Positions 15,784-59,022 of a DNA stretch of 64,000 nt are shown piece by piece. This DNA is from a virus. The position numbers and the translations under genes are program-made. The notes beneath the pieces were generated by a model that saw nothing but the letters and a program-made list of their open reading frames with translations, was not told the origin of the DNA and did not search any database. Numbering within the stretch: the first letter of the stretch is position 1; each line of letters starts with the position of its first letter. Location: positions 15,588 to 79,587 of the IMG/VR virus record IMGVR_UViG_3300023440_000003; one strand, given 5' to 3'.

Positions 15784-16146
15784 ATGTATTACGACATCAT
15801 GCTTTACAAATTAGCACAACAACAACAAATGAATGAAGAAGCATTGAAAAGAGCTTTAGGGCGTAGATTTATTCAAACACTGGCGTTAAGTGAGCGACTC
15901 GCTGAACAGACTTTACCTCGTTTTGGAGTTGCTGTAGGATCTGGTGTTTTAGGTGGAGCTCTTGGTGGCGCTGCTACTGCTCTATTACGGAAAGGACCTG
16001 TTGGTCGTACTATGGGTAAAGGTGCTTTGATTGGTGGTGTTTTGGGTGCGGGATTAGGTATTTATGATTGGCTTCGTCGTAGAAAGATTCAGCGTGCATT
16101 AGCTAGAAATATGCTTATGAATTATATGTATCAATACAGATTATGA
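15784..16146 (+). CDS. Glycine-zipper putative internal virion protein
   Basis: MYYDIMLYKLA leader; GVLGGALGGAA and GALIGGVLGAGLG. Confidence 0.65.
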   Translation: MYYDIMLYKLAQQQQMNEEALKRALGRRFIQTLALSERLAEQTLPRFGVAVGSGVLGGALGGAATALLRKGPVGRTMGKGALIGGVLGAGLGIYDWLRRRKIQRALARNMLMNYMYQYRL

Positions 16147-16562
16147 GTATTATTAAAGATCTTGAAAGTTATTTTGGAAGTTCTACTGCGGATGATGTTG
16201 CTAGTGTAAAGTCTATACCTTTTGATGTAAAAGTTACTTTTACTTCTGCTGAACTTGCTGGCCATCGAGTTACAGTAGAAAAAGTTATTAATTTACCATC
16301 ACCCAACGTTTATATAGAAAACGTTAGTGCCATAAAACGCAGCGGTTTAGGTTATTTTTCTATTTTGCTGAGTAAGAGTTCTATTAGTCAAAATAGTCTT
16401 GTAGATGTTTTTTATGAAGTAATAGACGTATCTGATAAGATTATAGACGAGATTGGGATGAATTATTTCTCTTCAGATCAGACTCCTAGGTTATGGGTAG
16501 TGGTCACTAGTTATGGAACCCCTTTAGAAGTTGAGGTTCAAATTTCGGGGCTAATTAGATAG
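16143..16562 (+). CDS. Putative structural protein
   Basis: Coupled ORF, beta-rich composition. Confidence 0.55.
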   Translation: MSIIKDLESYFGSSTADDVASVKSIPFDVKVTFTSAELAGHRVTVEKVINLPSPNVYIENVSAIKRSGLGYFSILLSKSSISQNSLVDVFYEVIDVSDKIIDEIGMNYFSSDQTPRLWVVVTSYGTPLEVEVQISGLIR

Positions 16563-16566
16563 TAAA

Positions 16567-17901
16567 ATGTTTAGAGTTAGGCCCAAAAGCTTCGGTGTCT
16601 ATTCTAGAGCTACTGTAGTTCAGAGTAAGGTATCTATTTATCGTTTAGGTGGTAGTAATGTGTTTGTTTTGCGCCCTTCGGTACCAATTTTAGGATCTAT
16701 GGACGACTCTATTGTAATTCATACATTGCCTAATGGAGGTAATGCTGAATTGATCCAAGTCTTTAAGTCTTTGGATGATAACATAGAATCTGTGTCTTTT
16801 ATCGTTGGATTAGACGCAACTCCTACTATCGTTGATAATTTTGAAGGTGCTTTTGCCTGGCAGACTAGTGATGCCACTAATACTCCGGCAACCCAAGATA
16901 TTAATGCTTATGAAGGTAATTATGCTATGAAAATTTCTACTACTAAAAATCGAAGCCTTAACGACAAAGTTTTTTTGTCGTATCAGACTGCTCAGGATTG
17001 GTCTGGATATGAATTTATAAAATTTTATTGGCAGTGCAATGAAGATTTATATTTCCGTTTTTATATATCCGATGGAGTGAATTTTATGTATATAGATTTA
17101 CCGAAATCCAATGTTTACACTGAGCAAGTAATAAGATTATCAAGTATGATTCCGGATGGAGGGACTTATCCTGATTTAACTGCAGTAGTAGAGGTAGGTT
17201 TTTTGGTTATACGAGATAATGAAAATACTACAGCATATGTGGATAATATAGTATTGATACCAGATAGTGCTGTATCTTTTGATGTACAAATTCTTGATCT
17301 TGGTTCCACACCTTCAGTCGTTCCTCCTTTTACTGTAAAGCCTTTCGATGATGGATCTACTTTTACCACATTTACTTTGTCAAATTATATTAAAAATGAA
17401 GTAGAGATAGAAACTCCTATCGGGATATCTGACCTATCTAACTTATTAGTCAAGGGTAATTTTTATGGAGTACGTATTTTCAATGTGCAGGGCGATTGGC
17501 CTTTACAAATTTATGGAGGGATATCAGCGGATCCATCACTTTATATGGTATATACTAGCACTGACGGTACAAATTTTAGTGAACTTGCAGGCAATTCTGC
17601 ACATTTTTATACGAAAGTAGAGTTGAGTCAAGGAAGTTTTTTGAGGCATTTAAGTCTGCATCCAGAAATTGTACCAAACAATTCTAGAGTTGAAGTTAGA
17701 TGTATGTTGTATAATAATGAAGTCATACATCATGTAATTAATGATACTATAATTACAGATAAACTTGAAGTTACTTTTGAACCTCCTTTATTTATTCCCA
17801 GAGGTGCTTATGGTTTGTTACATATTTATGATAATTCTGTAGGCGGTTCTTGGTTAATAAAGAGATTATTATTATATGAAAAAGCAGAGTATATACCATA
17901 G
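16567..17901 (+). CDS. Putative virion protein with carbohydrate-binding-module-like domain
   Basis: IVDNFEG...QDWSGYEFIKFY...YVDNIVL pattern of CBM-like jelly rolls. Confidence 0.55.
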   Translation: MFRVRPKSFGVYSRATVVQSKVSIYRLGGSNVFVLRPSVPILGSMDDSIVIHTLPNGGNAELIQVFKSLDDNIESVSFIVGLDATPTIVDNFEGAFAWQTSDATNTPATQDINAYEGNYAMKISTTKNRSLNDKVFLSYQTAQDWSGYEFIKFYWQCNEDLYFRFYISDGVNFMYIDLPKSNVYTEQVIRLSSMIPDGGTYPDLTAVVEVGFLVIRDNENTTAYVDNIVLIPDSAVSFDVQILDLGSTPSVVPPFTVKPFDDGSTFTTFTLSNYIKNEVEIETPIGISDLSNLLVKGNFYGVRIFNVQGDWPLQIYGGISADPSLYMVYTSTDGTNFSELAGNSAHFYTKVELSQGSFLRHLSLHPEIVPNNSRVEVRCMLYNNEVIHHVINDTIITDKLEVTFEPPLFIPRGAYGLLHIYDNSVGGSWLIKRLLLYEKAEYIP

Positions 17902-17903
17902 CT

Positions 17904-18332
17904 ATGAGAAGGATTGATTATATAGTAATTCATCATTCTGCAAGTTCTTACGGTGATTCAAAATTAATAGATAGATGGCATAGAGAAAGAGGATTCAAAA
18001 AGATAGGTTATCACTATATCATTTTAAATGGCTTTAGAAAAAATAGCCGGGAATACGAAGTAGCTTTTGATGGTTTTATAGAACCTGGAAGAAAATTATC
18101 AGAAATAGGTGCACACGTGAAAGGATATAACAAGAATTCTATAGGCATATGCCTTATAGGAAATCATTTGTTTACGTTAAATCAATTCATAAGTTTGAAA
18201 ATTCTTGTTAAAGAGCTAAAAAATAAATTTCCTACTGCTAAGGTGGTAGGTCATTGTGACCTGGATCCAGTAAATAAACCTGACTGCCCAGGATTTGATG
18301 TTGATACATTTATAGCTGAAGTTTTGGATTAA
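17904..18332 (+). CDS. N-acetylmuramoyl-L-alanine amidase (T7 lysozyme-like endolysin)
   Basis: IVIHHSA, IGYHYII, GAHVKGYN, SIGICLIG, GHCD, CPGFDV. Confidence 0.93.
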   Translation: MRRIDYIVIHHSASSYGDSKLIDRWHRERGFKKIGYHYIILNGFRKNSREYEVAFDGFIEPGRKLSEIGAHVKGYNKNSIGICLIGNHLFTLNQFISLKILVKELKNKFPTAKVVGHCDLDPVNKPDCPGFDVDTFIAEVLD

Positions 18333-18341
18333 TCTTTCATA

Positions 18342-18611
18342 CCAGGGAGGATCCCAGTAGTCCCCCTTGGCCGGGGGGCTCGGGGCACTACGGGTCTAGC
18401 CCCACCCCGCCCGTGGCCCTGAGAATCCTGGGATCGAAGAGGCTGTATGAGTAGGAGGGGCGCCCGGTAGGGGGTAGCCTCTCCGCTGCCCTGCGGTAGG
18501 TCCCACCTACCGCAGGGAAGGCTGACTGGGGACCCGGGACCCGGTCAGCCCAGGGTCAGCGTCGGACCGGCCTGGTCCACCGGTGGCGCTGACTTGGAGT
18601 TTTTTTTTTTT
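18342..18611 (+). ncRNA. Unassigned highly structured ncRNA
   Basis: GC-rich intergenic island in an AT-rich genome; at least six stems whose G-U wobbles favour the + strand; ends in 12 T. Confidence 0.75.
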
Positions 18612-18653
18612 AGCTATTATTTTATTTTAGACTTTTGATAAAATAGCTAAAAA

Positions 18654-18887
18654 ATGAAGGTTCTAGATTTAGAATTTATACGCAATAAGAAAAGGTGGAA
18701 GTACTTTTTATATAAACTTTCTTTTTACATGATTTTATTATCTACGGCGATATTTTTTGGAGCAGTTCTTTTTGCACTTATAGAAGGATTGGTTAAGTAT
18801 AGATTATGGAAGTTAGTTGGTGTAGCAGCGTTAGGCGTGTTTGTATTTTTTATTATATTCCATTACACTTGTGAGGAATTTGATTGA
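18654..18887 (+). CDS. Two-TM membrane protein, holin candidate
   Basis: Two hydrophobic helices, basic N-terminus, near the amidase; TGATAAAAT at 18636-18644. Confidence 0.45.
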   Translation: MKVLDLEFIRNKKRWKYFLYKLSFYMILLSTAIFFGAVLFALIEGLVKYRLWKLVGVAALGVFVFFIIFHYTCEEFD

Positions 18888-22257: not shown

Positions 22258-23136
22258 GTGGCTTATTATTCTTTCCTATCTAATTCAGCAAACTTAATTA
22301 CTGACATAAAGAATGTTCTTGTGACTAATGAAGGATGGATAGATTATGACCCGACATACAATGTAGTTCAGACTCCAGCTACTGCGGCCTATCCTTTTTT
22401 CTTTAGGTTTGTGCAGGTGTTAAATCATTATAGGTTAGATGGAGCTGCCTATCTTGGTTGGGATAATGTCAATCACACTGGTAGTTTTGCTTCTCCAACA
22501 AAGTATGCTCAATTTTATAGCACTACTCCAACAGTTACTCCTGCTGCAGTCAATGTAATTATGTACGTCTGGAATAATGGTTTCATTATATGGCTTAAAG
22601 GTGCTGCTACAGATGGTACTCCCTATACAGGTATGTTTTATATAGGAGATATGGAAGTTTTAAGTGACTTTCCTAATACTATGCCTCTTGCTTATCTTGC
22701 TACATATGGAACTGTGTATGCTCCTGGTTTTGTGGGAGCATGTCCATACACGAGAAATCAAACAGAATTCATATGGAATAATACTGGTTACTATTTTGTT
22801 CTTTCTTCCATAATTCCTGCTGCAAATTATTATGTTCATGTAGGCACAACCACAACTCCTGAAGGTGAGAGGTTATGGTTGAATGAATTGTTTTTAGTTA
22901 ACGTCAATAATCTGACTGCCAACGCTGTTGCTCAGGGTATTATGGGAAAGCTTAGATTTGTGAGAGGTATTTCACAAGATGTAGCATTACTTGACGGTGA
23001 TGAAATTGTCGACCAGTTTAACAGCTGGACTTTTGTGTCCTTACCTCAAGATGGAGGAAATCAGTTCAACAATGCAATGTGGAATGATTTGAGAAATTAT
23101 ACCTCTTTTAAGTACATTGCTATTTTTAAGGCGTAG
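22258..23136 (+). CDS. Putative tail fibre/receptor-binding protein, copy A
   Basis: Rich in aromatics and N/T; paralogous to 23321..24184. Confidence 0.55.
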   Translation: MAYYSFLSNSANLITDIKNVLVTNEGWIDYDPTYNVVQTPATAAYPFFFRFVQVLNHYRLDGAAYLGWDNVNHTGSFASPTKYAQFYSTTPTVTPAAVNVIMYVWNNGFIIWLKGAATDGTPYTGMFYIGDMEVLSDFPNTMPLAYLATYGTVYAPGFVGACPYTRNQTEFIWNNTGYYFVLSSIIPAANYYVHVGTTTTPEGERLWLNELFLVNVNNLTANAVAQGIMGKLRFVRGISQDVALLDGDEIVDQFNSWTFVSLPQDGGNQFNNAMWNDLRNYTSFKYIAIFKA

Positions 23137-23320: not shown

Positions 23321-24184
23321 ATGGGATTCTATATAGGGTCTGCCACCAGAGACATTTTAATATCCACTATAAAAACCAATCTTGTCAATGAGGGTTGGAT
23401 TGATTACGATCCAACATACAATGTAATTCAAACTCCTACAACAGCAACATATCAGTTTTTTGTAAGGTTCATATCGATAGATGATCAAAAGCTTAGCATC
23501 GCTTGTTATTTAAATTGGGATAATGTGAATCATACTGGGTCACAGTCGTCTAACACTAAGGATATTGTATTTTTTGATTCTCCTCCTAATACGACTCCAC
23601 CTAACGTTAACTACATTTTGAGATCGTGGGGAAATGGATTTATTCTATGGCTGAAAGGAGATCCTCTACATGGAAGTCCACAATATAATCTTGCATATAT
23701 TGGAGATCTAGCAGTTGTTACTGATTTTCCTCATCCATTTCCAGTAATATTTATGTGTTCTTCGTATTTTTCTGGTGCTTCTCATCTTGGATCTGGATAT
23801 ATTGTAGCCAAAAACCGTTTTGGCGAATTTGTGTGGGGTGGTCCTGCACATTACGCTCATCTTGTTTCAATCCCGCCATGTTCCACATGGGAAGGAGGTT
23901 ATACGATAAATGGAGATGTAAATACTCCAGATGGACAGAGATTATGGATGCCTGAGTTGTATCTAGTAGCAGCAAAACAGCCTCAAGGTGTTTATGGCCG
24001 ACTGCAATATATTAAAGGTATTACTCAGGATATAGCTTTTTTTGATGGGGACGAATTGATAGATCAAAGCGGGAACAGTTTTGTTGTAGCAAATCTTTAC
24101 AATCGTTATGGCGAATTCTGCAATTTACTAGGGGCTTATCCTTATGCATATAATATAAAAAGAGTTGCTATACAGAAAATCTGA
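23321..24184 (+). CDS. Putative tail fibre/receptor-binding protein, copy B
   Basis: Shares NEGWIDYDPTYNV.QTP, WDNVNHTGS, GFI.WLKG, YIGD and DGDE with copy A. Confidence 0.55.
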   Translation: MGFYIGSATRDILISTIKTNLVNEGWIDYDPTYNVIQTPTTATYQFFVRFISIDDQKLSIACYLNWDNVNHTGSQSSNTKDIVFFDSPPNTTPPNVNYILRSWGNGFILWLKGDPLHGSPQYNLAYIGDLAVVTDFPHPFPVIFMCSSYFSGASHLGSGYIVAKNRFGEFVWGGPAHYAHLVSIPPCSTWEGGYTINGDVNTPDGQRLWMPELYLVAAKQPQGVYGRLQYIKGITQDIAFFDGDELIDQSGNSFVVANLYNRYGEFCNLLGAYPYAYNIKRVAIQKI

Positions 24185-30017: not shown

Positions 30018-31268
30018 TCAATTTGCATTTGTACACAAAATTAATACTTTATCTGGATACTTTGAATGTCTAAACACTAATATTTGAACAAATCCTGATA
30101 TATTTCGTGGGGTTAGTATTATTTTTTGAGTTTTGGGGTTAAGTTTCTCTAAAAGTGCACTTATCTTTCTATACAAGGCTATATATTCTGTGGTTGACCC
30201 CAGTAACCTGAAGCCTTTATTATATAGCTTTTTGATAAGATTTCTTAAATCGTCCTTATATTTGTATTGTATTATTGCTATGTTTATATCTGGCTTATTT
30301 ATTTCAGCATTCTCGAAGAATCTGTCGTATAGGTGAATGGTATGTCGACCATAAAGTTCAACGCCAGCACTTTTTGCTGCCCATAATATAGGGTTTATGT
30401 ATCCATAATAACCGTTCTTTTTATTATGGTCTCTTTCTTTATCTAAAAATACAGCAGCTTTTTTGGATAATGATCTGGGAAGTTTTAACATTACTTTATC
30501 GTCAGTTTTTACGAAATATAATCCAAGAAATTTGAATTCCTCATTTTTCCTTATTGGTGTGATACGGATCTTAAATTTATAACGTCCAAATACAGACTTA
30601 ATGTAGTTTATGATTTTTTCATCACTTAAACTAGATTGAACTCCTATTAAAAAATCATCAGCATATCTGAATGTCACCATCGATAGCGATCTATTATATG
30701 CTTTTGTAATCACATTAAGTCTGTAAGTTAAGCCCGTAGTAAGTATTCCGGCAAGTATAGGTGATGTAGGTAATCCATAAGGGATATGACCATTTATGAA
30801 ACAATACGTTTTAATTACGTCTATGAATCTATCTATATCCATACCTAACTGCAACTTATTTACCTTAGCTATAAAATTTATTGAATCGTCCAATGCGACG
30901 TCATAAGTTTCATATAATTTTTTTGGGAGAACATATTTATATAGGTCTAATCTGTCAGGAGTTATTGATTCGAAGTAATTTATTACATCCACTTTAAAAA
31001 ATCTTCTGTCATCTTGCAGTATATGAAAGAGTTGTAGGAATTTTTGGCCTGAATGTACTGATGAGATAGCGAAATCAGTACAGTTAGTTTCGACATATTT
31101 TAGATATATGATGTAGTGTGTACTTAGAGTGTTATGCAAAATTTTTAGAACTTTTTCGTAAGGACCTAACGGTATATATATTTTTTTAAACTTATCTTTC
31201 TTCTTTATTTGTCTGACTCTATACACTTTGGGTATTTCTTTCTTGAAAATTTTTGTTTCAAACTCCAT
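30018..31268 (-). CDS. Reverse transcriptase, retron-like/unclassified
   Basis: KVDVINYFESI, IPYGLPTSPIL, FRYADDF, FLGL; strong SD AGGAGGTG. Confidence 0.88.
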   Translation of the reverse strand: MEFETKIFKKEIPKVYRVRQIKKKDKFKKIYIPLGPYEKVLKILHNTLSTHYIIYLKYVETNCTDFAISSVHSGQKFLQLFHILQDDRRFFKVDVINYFESITPDRLDLYKYVLPKKLYETYDVALDDSINFIAKVNKLQLGMDIDRFIDVIKTYCFINGHIPYGLPTSPILAGILTTGLTYRLNVITKAYNRSLSMVTFRYADDFLIGVQSSLSDEKIINYIKSVFGRYKFKIRITPIRKNEEFKFLGLYFVKTDDKVMLKLPRSLSKKAAVFLDKERDHNKKNGYYGYINPILWAAKSAGVELYGRHTIHLYDRFFENAEINKPDINIAIIQYKYKDDLRNLIKKLYNKGFRLLGSTTEYIALYRKISALLEKLNPKTQKIILTPRNISGFVQILVFRHSKYPDKVLILCTNAN

Positions 31269-43568: not shown

Positions 43569-44393
43569 GTGATTAGATTACCTTGCATACGTTTCATAGC
43601 GGCTTCATTAATTTTATTTGATGATATAGAACAATGTAAAGAGTTTCTTGTACAGAATTACGTTCCTTTACCTCCGGATGATAAATTACAAAAATTGAAT
43701 GAAGTAGTGAAAGGCTCTTCAAAACGATTGACAAAGACTCAAAAAATAAAACTTCTGAAAGAAAAGAAAATGCCAGAATTTGCAAGGTATTTTATAAAGG
43801 GTGAAATAGACATGGAGCCTGATTTTGATGAGCTCTTACACGTGCAGCAAAGTTTTAATATAAGAATACCACTTCAAGCTTTTTTGATGACCAAAGACCC
43901 TGACATGTTGAAATTAAGTCCTTTTGAGGTTTCTGAAAAAACACGTGAACTTTATAAATTCTATTTATTTGACATAGAAAAGATGAGATTAAAAGACTGG
44001 ATAGTTTATCTTAAGTTACTGTATGAATTATTTCCTACGGATGCCAAATTGCTACTTATGCTTAAGAAAGGAGAAACTTTCTTATTTAAAAGGCACTTCA
44101 AACACTATTTGAAGATAAGTATGGATGATGTAAATATGGAGCTTAATAGTACTGCTGTTACAGTATTTCGCTTGTTAAGTGAACAGATTATTAAACAGGA
44201 TGAATATGGAAATTTATACCTTGAAATGAAGCCAGAAGTTTTTAGGGAGGCTAGATTATGGGCTAATTTACTTATTAATTCTATGAAGGTATTCAGAGAA
44301 CAACTGACAGGAGAACAGATACCAGAAAAAGTGGAATTAGTGCCACATGAATATGATATACCCACATTAAAAAGATTAATAGATGGGAAGTAA
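43569..44393 (+). CDS. Hypothetical protein, terminase small subunit candidate
   Basis: Directly upstream of and overlapping terL; helical; start reassigned to GTG 43569. Confidence 0.4.
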   Translation: MIRLPCIRFIAASLILFDDIEQCKEFLVQNYVPLPPDDKLQKLNEVVKGSSKRLTKTQKIKLLKEKKMPEFARYFIKGEIDMEPDFDELLHVQQSFNIRIPLQAFLMTKDPDMLKLSPFEVSEKTRELYKFYLFDIEKMRLKDWIVYLKLLYELFPTDAKLLLMLKKGETFLFKRHFKHYLKISMDDVNMELNSTAVTVFRLLSEQIIKQDEYGNLYLEMKPEVFREARLWANLLINSMKVFREQLTGEQIPEKVELVPHEYDIPTLKRLIDGK

Positions 44394-45918
44394 CAAACCA
44401 GTACAGCTTCGCAGAAGCGATCTTGTTGCAAGTCTTATATATATCGGAGGAAAGCCTTTTGATTTTAAAAATAGAGAATATTTAATACCTATTTATGATA
44501 CATTTAGGCCGGTTGTATTAAAAGGTGGTAGACAGATTGAAAAAAGTACTTTGCTTGCTGTGATTATGATTATTGACGGAATAAGTCATGATTTTTTCAA
44601 TTCGTTATATGTGAGTTATACTCAAAAACAGGTATCATTTTTTTCTAATTTACGTTTCGATCCTATAGCGTCATACTCTCCTTACATAAAATCTCATTTC
44701 TATACCGGCTCAAATCTAATAAAAAGGGTTGGTGATAAAACTTTTCGCAATGGTTCTGCGTTCTTTTTTAGATCAATGTATTCACATCATACAGCAGAAT
44801 CTATAAGAGGATTAAGCGCTGATAGAATATGTTTCGATGAGGTTCAAAGTCTCGATCCTAGAGGAATGTCTATAGTGGAGGAATGTATGTCCCACTCACC
44901 GTATAAATATGTAATATATGCAGGTACAGCAAAATCTCCTCAGAATGAAATAGAACGTATGTGGAATATGTCGACTCAGATTGAGTATATGATCAAATGT
45001 GAAGCATGCAACCACTGGAATTATCAGGATGAGAAAATAATAGGCAAAAACAGTTATATATGCAGTAGATGTGGAAAGCCTATAGATATGAGAAATGGTA
45101 CTCTTGTTATGATGGGAGATAAATATGCGCCATACTTTGGAATGCGTATCACTCAGATGCAGGCTCCTTTTGTAAGTTTTGATGAAATAAAACTTAAATA
45201 TGAACGTATGCCATTATATCTGTTCTATAATGAAGTCCTGGGTCTTCCTTATGAATTTGCAGAACGCCCCATCAGTTTAAGAGAACTGCAGGCTTGTTGT
45301 GTTGATAGAGATTTCATAGAGTCTTCTACTCTTGTAGGTAGAACTGTAGCTGCGGGAATAGATTGGGGAGGCGGTACCAGATCTTTTACTGAGGTGGTTA
45401 TAGGAGAATTTATAAATGGTAAGTACAAAGTCTATTATGTGCATAGATTAAAAGTAGCAGATCCTATTGAGCAGGTGGATTTTCTATCTAGATTGCTGAA
45501 GACTTATAAAGTCAGAATTGCCGTATGTGATATGGGTTTTGGTGACATGAAAGTACAGGAGCTTAGAGCTCTAACTGGCATTCCAGTTATTGGTTGTTAT
45601 TATTCATCTACTAAAGTCAGAAGCATTATATATAAAGAAAAAGAAAATATGATCCATGTAAATAGAACCTGGGCCTTAAGTGAAGTATTTCGTCTTTTGA
45701 AACGTAGAAGGTTTGAATTTCCCAGATATTCTATAATGGCAGAATTTTTTGAAGAAATCCTGAACGTAACAACTGAGGTACATCAAGTTCAGGGGCAAGA
45801 TACAATTATGTATATTCACGATGCCGAACATCCAGATGATTTTCTTCATGCGCTGAATTATTTTAAAATAGCCTGCGATTATAAAAAATTCGTTGACAAT
45901 CTTAACATAGTGGTTTAG
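44383..45918 (+). CDS. terL: Terminase large subunit (GpA-like)
   Basis: VLKGGRQIEKST, IRGLSADRICFDEVQ, CEAC/CSRC zinc finger, NEVLGLPY, AGIDWG, DDFLHA. Confidence 0.88.
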   Translation: MGSNKPVQLRRSDLVASLIYIGGKPFDFKNREYLIPIYDTFRPVVLKGGRQIEKSTLLAVIMIIDGISHDFFNSLYVSYTQKQVSFFSNLRFDPIASYSPYIKSHFYTGSNLIKRVGDKTFRNGSAFFFRSMYSHHTAESIRGLSADRICFDEVQSLDPRGMSIVEECMSHSPYKYVIYAGTAKSPQNEIERMWNMSTQIEYMIKCEACNHWNYQDEKIIGKNSYICSRCGKPIDMRNGTLVMMGDKYAPYFGMRITQMQAPFVSFDEIKLKYERMPLYLFYNEVLGLPYEFAERPISLRELQACCVDRDFIESSTLVGRTVAAGIDWGGGTRSFTEVVIGEFINGKYKVYYVHRLKVADPIEQVDFLSRLLKTYKVRIAVCDMGFGDMKVQELRALTGIPVIGCYYSSTKVRSIIYKEKENMIHVNRTWALSEVFRLLKRRRFEFPRYSIMAEFFEEILNVTTEVHQVQGQDTIMYIHDAEHPDDFLHALNYFKIACDYKKFVDNLNIVV

Positions 45919-52349: not shown

Positions 52350-52375
52350 TTTTAGGATTTATCCTTATGATGTAC

Positions 52376-52409
52376 GGCCCTCTTCCCTCTTGGAAGAGGG
52401 CCTTTTTTT
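52376..52409 (+). terminator. Rho-independent terminator after the major capsid gene
   Basis: GGCCCTCTTCC-ctctt-GGAAGAGGGCC followed by T7. Confidence 0.9.
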
Positions 52410-52456
52410 ATGTTAAAATTTAGCCGTAAAGATTAATACTTTAAGGAGGTTTAGAG

Positions 52457-58951: not shown

Positions 58952-59005
58952 AGCTAAAAAAAGCAAGATCTAAGTAATCCTCCCGGGGGATTTTCCCCCG
59001 GGAGG
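58952..59005 (-). terminator. Hairpin plus TTTTTTTAGCT terminator-like element
   Basis: 12-bp stem at 58979-59005, then T7-AGCT 16 nt further along the minus strand. Confidence 0.65.
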
Positions 59006-59022
59006 CAAATTTTTCACTATAA

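Follow-up and report, generated by a model that had tools for sequence, protein, structure and literature searches.

Intrinsic terminators are made up of a single GC-rich hairpin of 25-35 nt that is followed by a U run and lies on the coding strand at the end of an operon. Hairpins at such positions can also act as 3' stabilisers, with stems that are stable enough to block 3' exonucleases, and the inter-cistronic hairpins of the phage T7 mRNAs are an example of stabilisers. Phages and prophages also carry orphan structured non-coding RNAs, such as GOLLD, ROOL and similar RNAs, which are hairpin-dense and higher in GC than their surroundings, and for which conservation is the defining evidence. 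The msr-msd RNA of retrons is a few hundred nucleotides long, contains a long perfect hairpin, and adjoins the reverse transcriptase (RT) gene; to our knowledge, the RNAs of all known retrons, DRTs, and DGRs adjoin their RT. Finally, morons are located between conserved genes, deviate in composition, end with a terminator, and are present in some strains and absent from others. Such strain-variable accessory cassettes of phages often bear host-interaction functions.

The locus described here is located in a phage record of 79.6 kb (IMG/VR record IMGVR_UViG_3300023440_000003), with an overall GC content of 35%, that was recovered from a microbial-mat metagenome. All coordinates refer to the window, which is the stretch of 64,000 nt of this record that was analysed. 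The main features of the locus are as follows:

17904-18332, plus strand: N-acetylmuramoyl-L-alanine amidase (endolysin) gene; Pfam Amidase_2, E 3e-14; PHROG 822, E 9e-40
18342-18599, plus strand: island of 258 nt, GC-rich (70.5%) and non-coding, the only one in the record
18654-18887, plus strand: 77-aa open reading frame (ORF); two long hydrophobic stretches, no family

Judged from its sequence, the island is a genuine and conspicuous feature without a match to any known family, and it makes a good lead rather than an established RNA class. As in intrinsic terminators and 3' stabilisers, an operon ends on its coding strand with a GC hairpin and a U run, and the stems of the island could likewise block 3' exonucleases, but it comprises at least five helices in 258 nt instead of one hairpin and, unlike simple terminators, it is foreign to the genome in composition and varies between strains. 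With the GOLLD and ROOL type of RNA, the island has in common that it is non-coding, dense in hairpins, elevated in GC, and borne by a phage, but it is smaller, has no Rfam match to them, and is a singleton without a family. It is comparable to a retron msr-msd RNA in length, in its long perfect hairpin, and in the presence of a retron-like RT in the genome, but this RT lies 11.4 kb away on the opposite strand, and the best candidate for an a1/a2 pairing in the island is short. The island also appears to have all four of the moron traits listed above, but a protein gene is lacking, and so is any promoter that could be recognised as belonging to it.

The GC-rich stretch with a T12-AGCTA tail that was described in the initial annotation is indeed present, since the 70.5% GC of the island contrasts with 29-32% in its surroundings (31.9% and 29.0% in the two 1-kb flanks), and the T12 run at 18600-18611 is directly followed by AGCTA. 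The island is the only place in the 79.6-kb record where 100-nt windows reach 58% GC or more, it occupies the longest intergenic gap of the record, and no other T run on either strand is as long as T12, the runner-up being 8 nt long. The amidase gene is the last of four genes in a plus-strand block (15784-18332) and its stop codon is followed by the island after 9 nt, whereas a block of minus-strand genes lies beyond the downstream ORF, so that genes converge at this locus. No open reading frame passes through the island, as there are stops in every frame, and the island matches only itself within the record. Several other identities were rejected. A coding fragment is incompatible with stops in all frames. 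An intron that splits the amidase gene does not fit with an amidase stop codon that lies in the part shared with a second strain (see below), nor is there a group I or II intron match. An attP site with a tRNA or tmRNA fragment was dismissed since there is no such match and no integrase nearby, and a REP/BIME extragenic palindrome since the sequence occurs once in the record, without dispersed copies.

No signature of tRNA, tmRNA, RNase P, or SRP had been recognised in the initial annotation, and a search against Rfam had been suggested. Both points were confirmed, as none of the families in Rfam 15 matched at the gathering score over the whole 64-kb window, and ARAGORN found no tRNA or tmRNA gene in the window or anywhere in the full 79.6-kb record. 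Rfam 15 includes RNase P, SRP, 6S, pRNA, riboswitches, T-box, group I and group II introns, small ribozymes, and GOLLD/ROOL/HEARO. At E<=10, there were only chance matches to miRNAs and snoRNAs, far below threshold and driven by the palindrome of hairpin S3 (see below). A hammerhead ribozyme was rejected because the CUGAGAA segment lacks the essential G8, and resemblances to SRP helix 8 and the 16S 3'-end were rejected as short word resemblances only. BLAST of the island and of a 7-kb neighbourhood gave no match in GenBank phages or in plasmids. Scans of IMG/VR with pieces of the island, using exact words and gapped structured patterns, gave nothing, and neither did exact-word scans of the JGI metagenomes and GTDB (185,579 species genomes). 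The 23-mer at the core of S3 did not occur in any of the viral, metagenome, or genome collections searched, and a literature search yielded nothing relevant. There was no RNA run among the sequencing runs that carry the stretch. Thus, the description of the island as an unassigned structured RNA stands insofar as it is non-coding and belongs to no known class, but its further implication, an RNA gene under selection, found no homologue to support it. A packaging RNA, one of the roles initially proposed, is unlikely, as the phage encodes a classical large terminase, TerL (44383-45918, plus strand; PHROG 675, E 3e-79), and Rfam gave no match to a phi29-type pRNA.

The phage itself belongs to an extremely isolated, nearly orphan lineage. 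Its TerL is at most 29% identical to those of GenBank phages and a close TerL relative was sought in IMG/VR without success. The 444-aa product of the gene at 16567-17901 (plus strand), two positions upstream of the amidase gene, has 0 homologues among 5.8 billion proteins. Relatives of the amidase share only 35-50% identity and are found in unrelated contexts in viral and bacterial contigs, in which neither a comparable GC island nor a match to the present island occurs. The IVYWREL fraction of the proteome (0.413) corresponds to a crude growth optimum of ~52 °C, which suggests a moderately thermophilic host. Such a setting could perhaps help to account for the GC richness of a functional RNA.

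Folding of the island on the plus strand gave a minimum free energy (MFE) of -154.6 kcal/mol, and the following elements were examined:

18350-18435, plus strand: 5' domain, in which S1 encloses hairpins 18361-66/18373-78 and 18379-86/18416-23
18350-57/18428-35, plus strand: stem S1; mean pair probability 0.44 at 37 °C and 0.93 at 55 °C
18450-65/18472-87, plus strand: hairpin S2' with three G-U pairs; z -2.3, versus -1.2 on the minus strand
18489-501/18505-17, plus strand: hairpin S3, perfect 13 bp with a CCC loop; pair probability 0.98 at 37 °C
18520-30/18540-50, plus strand: hairpin S4, 11 bp, of which one is U-G; z -3.8, pair probability 0.98 at 37 °C
18553-63/18585-95, plus strand: hairpin S5, 11 bp with three G-U pairs, around an inner hairpin 18564-68/18574-78

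Compared to dinucleotide shuffles, the whole stretch reached a z of -3.7 for the plus and -2.7 for the minus strand. Folding beyond what the composition predicts is confined to the 3' half of the island. S3, which as a perfect palindrome is strand-symmetric, gave a z of -6.3, and 0 of 200 shuffles folded equally well. S5 reached a z of -1.9, with an energy of -22 to -24 kcal/mol and a pair probability of 0.63 at 37 °C; it shares the arms GCTGAC/GTCAGC with S4 as a direct repeat. In the 5' domain, the first inner hairpin has a pair probability of 0.40 at 37 °C and 0.82 at 55 °C, and the second, with a C-rich loop of 13 nt, 0.94 and 0.87, respectively. However, the 96-nt 5' domain closed by S1 has a z of only -0.8, alike on both strands, and is no better than dinucleotide shuffles. 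Part of the apparent structure of the island is no more than its composition predicts, and the true anomaly is the base composition together with the series of long, clean hairpins found in the 3' half.

Among the five stems of the initial annotation, S1, S3, S4, and S5 are complementary and well populated in the Boltzmann ensemble. The remaining one, 18438-45/18475-82, is complementary as well, but has an ensemble probability of ~0, as S2' takes its place. A pseudoknot had also been put forward, between the C-rich loop and a downstream G-rich tract. ACCCC at 18404-08 can pair with GGGGU at 18471-75, but at the level expected by chance for this composition, and because of the z of -0.8 for the 5' domain, neither a three-way junction nor the pseudoknot has support beyond composition. 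At higher temperatures the fold persists, with pair probabilities of 0.7-0.98 for S1, S3, S4, and S5 at 55-70 °C and an energy of -72.7 kcal/mol still at 70 °C. In the folds at 55-70 °C, CCAGG at the 5' end can pair with CUUGG at the 3' end (5 bp including one G-U).

The distribution of G-U pairs had been presented as a sign of selection on a plus-strand RNA. In the MFE structure, G-U pairs are indeed more numerous on the plus strand (9, versus 4 on the minus strand), but the plus-strand advantage is mostly compositional, since ~11 of the 18.7 kcal/mol by which the plus strand is favoured are already found in shuffles, and this bias is only weak evidence for the strand. The plus-strand orientation does agree with the direction of the left-hand genes and with the order of the hairpin and T12, which form the following feature:

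18553-18611, plus strand: intrinsic-terminator architecture; S5, then T12 at 18600-18611

With a GC hairpin ahead of a U run where the plus-strand block ends, this feature has the architecture of an intrinsic terminator on the plus strand only, is a predicted terminator, and gives the strongest terminator signal of the record. The strong pairs of S5 are separated from the U run by 4-6 nt. A simple consensus terminator scan missed it, as the loop exceeds the length allowed by the scan. Canonical intrinsic terminators, with a GC stem of 11-12 bp followed by T7, are located at 52360-52410 (plus strand), following the major head gene, and at ~58962-59006 (minus strand), where a minus-strand block ends. 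That a GC hairpin and T7 mark these operon ends (52403 on the plus and 58962 on the minus strand) indicates that the phage uses intrinsic terminators, and since these ends have a single hairpin, the island is much more than the usual stop signal of this phage. The phage encodes its own fused beta/beta-prime RNA polymerase, although it apparently relies on termination signals of the host type. Scans for the AGCTAAAAAA motif and for sigma-70 promoters were uninformative.

Strain variation was assessed in two sequencing runs, the probable source run (X1) and a second microbial-mat run of the same study (X2). In X1, a contig of 9,895 nt from a different assembler, with a contig-wide mean depth of 40, spans the island and both flanks, and its sole difference from the record is one T in the T run. 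That this second assembler joined the island to its flanks argues against an assembly chimera, albeit with reads from one and the same sample. The strain in X2 differs in ~0.5% of bases in the flanks. Its left contig matches the record through 18341 and then continues with 98 nt of unlike, AT-rich sequence, while its right contig begins with 38 unlike letters, also AT-rich, and matches from 18705 onwards. The left breakpoint, 18341/18342, is the exact start of the island. Most of the island had no cover in X2, an observation that should be read jointly with the contig that is unlike past 18341. The unlike junction sequences were not found elsewhere in the record, in IMG/VR, or in the metagenomes. 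The two breakpoints delimit the following segment:

18342-18704, no strand assigned: strain-variable cassette; X2 breakpoints at 18341/18342 and 18705

The segment contains the island, T12, and the AT-rich 92 nt after T12, and extends to codon 17 of the next ORF. The simplest reading of these sequences is that 18342-18704 is a cassette in one strain that is replaced in the other, and a near-identical strain in X2 appears to be without the island. Such a difference between co-occurring strains provides a natural plus/minus pair for tests of function.

A third X2 contig, of 225 nt and a depth of 2, contains 18479-18531 with 0 differences (53 nt), which covers all of hairpin S3 and the 5' arm of S4, and continues with 172 unrelated nucleotides (~50% GC), for which no collection gave a match. 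This contig may represent a second context for a related sequence, or a chimera, and we attach little weight to it.

The sharp breakpoints and the apparent absence of the island from the sister strain would also be expected if the island were functionless foreign DNA, acquired by illegitimate recombination, as any palindromic sequence with 70% GC will fold. The composition is wholly unlike that of the phage, the 5' third of the island folds at the level of shuffled sequences, and the presence of 18479-18531 in the low-depth contig hints at another context, although at a depth of 2 that contig could be a chimera. Nevertheless, we consider inert DNA distinctly unlikely. The GC-rich part ends exactly at the T12 run that completes the terminator, S3 and S4 are long hairpins that are perfect or nearly so, the island is not a fragment of a coding sequence, and there was no donor in the 185,579 species genomes, the JGI metagenomes, IMG/VR, or the plasmids.

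The reading that we tentatively prefer, and that we would place just short of probable, is that the island is a structured RNA module of the plus strand that is reached by transcription reading through from the endolysin genes' operon, ends at S5 and U12, has a protected 3' end, and possibly yields an RNA of ~260 nt. Read-through is suggested because only 9 nt, without a promoter, follow the amidase stop codon. The emerging RNA would fold, after the looser 5' domain, into a row of stable GC-rich hairpins (S2', S3, S4, and S5), S5 and U12 would halt transcription, and the stacked hairpins would shield the 3' end from exonucleases. The outcome might be a stabilised late or lysis mRNA or, after cleavage in a short linker, a 3' UTR-derived RNA of ~260 nt. 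The island, T12, and the next 92 nt would then constitute a moron-like accessory cassette of foreign-looking composition. Such a module is consistent with the location of the island directly behind the last plus-strand gene, at the point of gene convergence, and with a hairpin and T12 that work on the plus strand only. S3 and S4 are far beyond shuffles, S2' is better on the plus strand, the excess of G-U pairs is on that strand, and the fold persists at 70 °C. Stops in every frame, the spanning contig of the second assembler, and the X2 breakpoints, which mark the island as accessory, fit as well. On the other hand, no homologue was present in any collection searched, the 5' domain is at the shuffled level, the gain in energy on the plus strand is largely compositional, and S5, which stands 4-6 nt before the U run, has by itself a z of -1.9. 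In addition, one hairpin would suffice for termination, which leaves ~200 nt unexplained.

With 258 nt and at least five helices, the island is far beyond the needs of a terminator, and it could instead be a stand-alone structured non-coding RNA that acts in trans, an accessory 'RNA moron' that would accumulate late in infection. This is possible, but on the unlikely side. It might serve as an anti-defence decoy, regulate or scaffold the fused RNA polymerase of the phage, or form the RNA part of an RNP, and its hairpins could then bind proteins or have an architectural role in addition to termination. In AT-rich thermophiles, stable RNA genes are conspicuous by their GC content, and an island of 70% GC in a genome of 35% GC, with a crude optimum of ~52 °C, would match this pattern. 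The pairing of CCAGG with CUUGG could close the ends of such an RNA at 55-70 °C, and its location in a strain-variable cassette would agree with an accessory function. However, the 9 nt after the amidase stop codon leave no room for a promoter of its own, the 5' domain does not fold beyond shuffles, homologues were not found, and a near-identical strain apparently manages without the island. That the island is the gene for a new free-standing RNA of ~260 nt, carried as a swappable cassette and acting in trans late in infection, for example as a decoy for an RNA-sensing or RNA-guided defence of the host or as a partner of the phage RNA polymerase or the RT, we regard as rather unlikely. If the island does encode a real RNA, this would establish a new family of structured RNAs carried by phages, in a lineage of which hardly any relatives have been sequenced.

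The region downstream of the island contains a further repeat, which connects the end of T12 with the sequence directly preceding the start codon (ATG) of the 77-aa ORF:

18606-18/18642-54, no strand assigned: perfect AT-rich inverted repeat of 13 nt, TTTTTTAGCTATT / AATAGCTAAAAAA

The first 17 codons of the 77-aa ORF are within the strain-variable segment. Its product looks like a two-helix membrane protein for which Pfam and PHROG gave no family, and by analogy of position alone it could be a holin. A strong Shine-Dalgarno sequence as found before other genes (AAGGAGGTG) is absent; this sequence is present in 5 intergenic regions of the record. A word related to the inverted repeat, ATAGCTGAA, occurs at 18312-18320, inside the amidase gene, and together with the words at 18606-18/18642-54 it brackets the island with a direct repeat and an imperfect inverted repeat.

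The proximity of this ORF raises the alternative that the island acts in cis, as a leader or attenuator that controls whether transcription continues from the endolysin gene to the 77-aa ORF, with an exchange of arms between S4 and S5 that decides on the terminator. The island and its terminator lie 42 nt upstream of the ATG, the perfect 13-bp repeat ties the T run to the start region of the ORF, and because the GCTGAC/GTCAGC arms are interchangeable, the 5' arm of S5 could be sequestered by that of S4, which would block the terminator. We find attenuation very improbable, as S4 (0.98) and S5 (0.63-0.80) both form and no antiterminator state is populated. Furthermore, there is no match to a riboswitch, T-box, or leader family, and the ORF, which lacks a strong Shine-Dalgarno sequence, may be spurious or have a different start.

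The initial annotation had linked the island to an RT encoded elsewhere in the window, of which the RNA might be a partner in trans:

30018-31268, minus strand: orphan retron-like RT; weak matches to retron-type RT models, best E 1e-11

The RT falls below the Pfam RVT_1 cut-off and has a single homologue among 5.8 billion proteins, with 45% identity. It does lack an adjacent non-coding RNA, and besides the island no structured non-coding element is obvious in the 79.6 kb, so that a template or scaffold RNA of this RT could be envisaged. In retrons, the RNA adjoins the RT in the same transcription unit, whereas the island and the RT are 11.4 kb apart on opposite strands. The a1/a2 complementarity of retrons measures at least about 7 nt and lies beside a branching G, a residue that the sequence alone does not reveal, and the ends of the island can be closed only by the 5 bp of CCAGG/CUUGG, including a G-U pair. 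The RT resembles retron RTs only weakly, a second copy of the island that might be a retrohoming target is missing from the record, no repeat of the TR/VR type is present in the window, and the X2 strain appears to lack the island. Alternatively, the island could act at the level of DNA, as a site for recombination or protein binding, for which the strand-symmetric perfect palindrome of S3 would be suitable. Taken together, a partner RNA of the RT or a DNA-level site is exceedingly improbable. Nothing supports the link between the RT and the island, and it should be dropped unless new data emerge. A DGR template repeat, which would have a near-identical VR copy in a target gene with differences at adenines, was rejected separately, as the island matches only itself in the record and the window contains no suitable direct repeat.

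Elsewhere on the plus strand, the record contains two adjacent paralogous genes, 22258-23136 and 23321-24184, which have 83 nt in common at 76% identity and represent a tandem duplication of a gene for a protein of ~290 aa.
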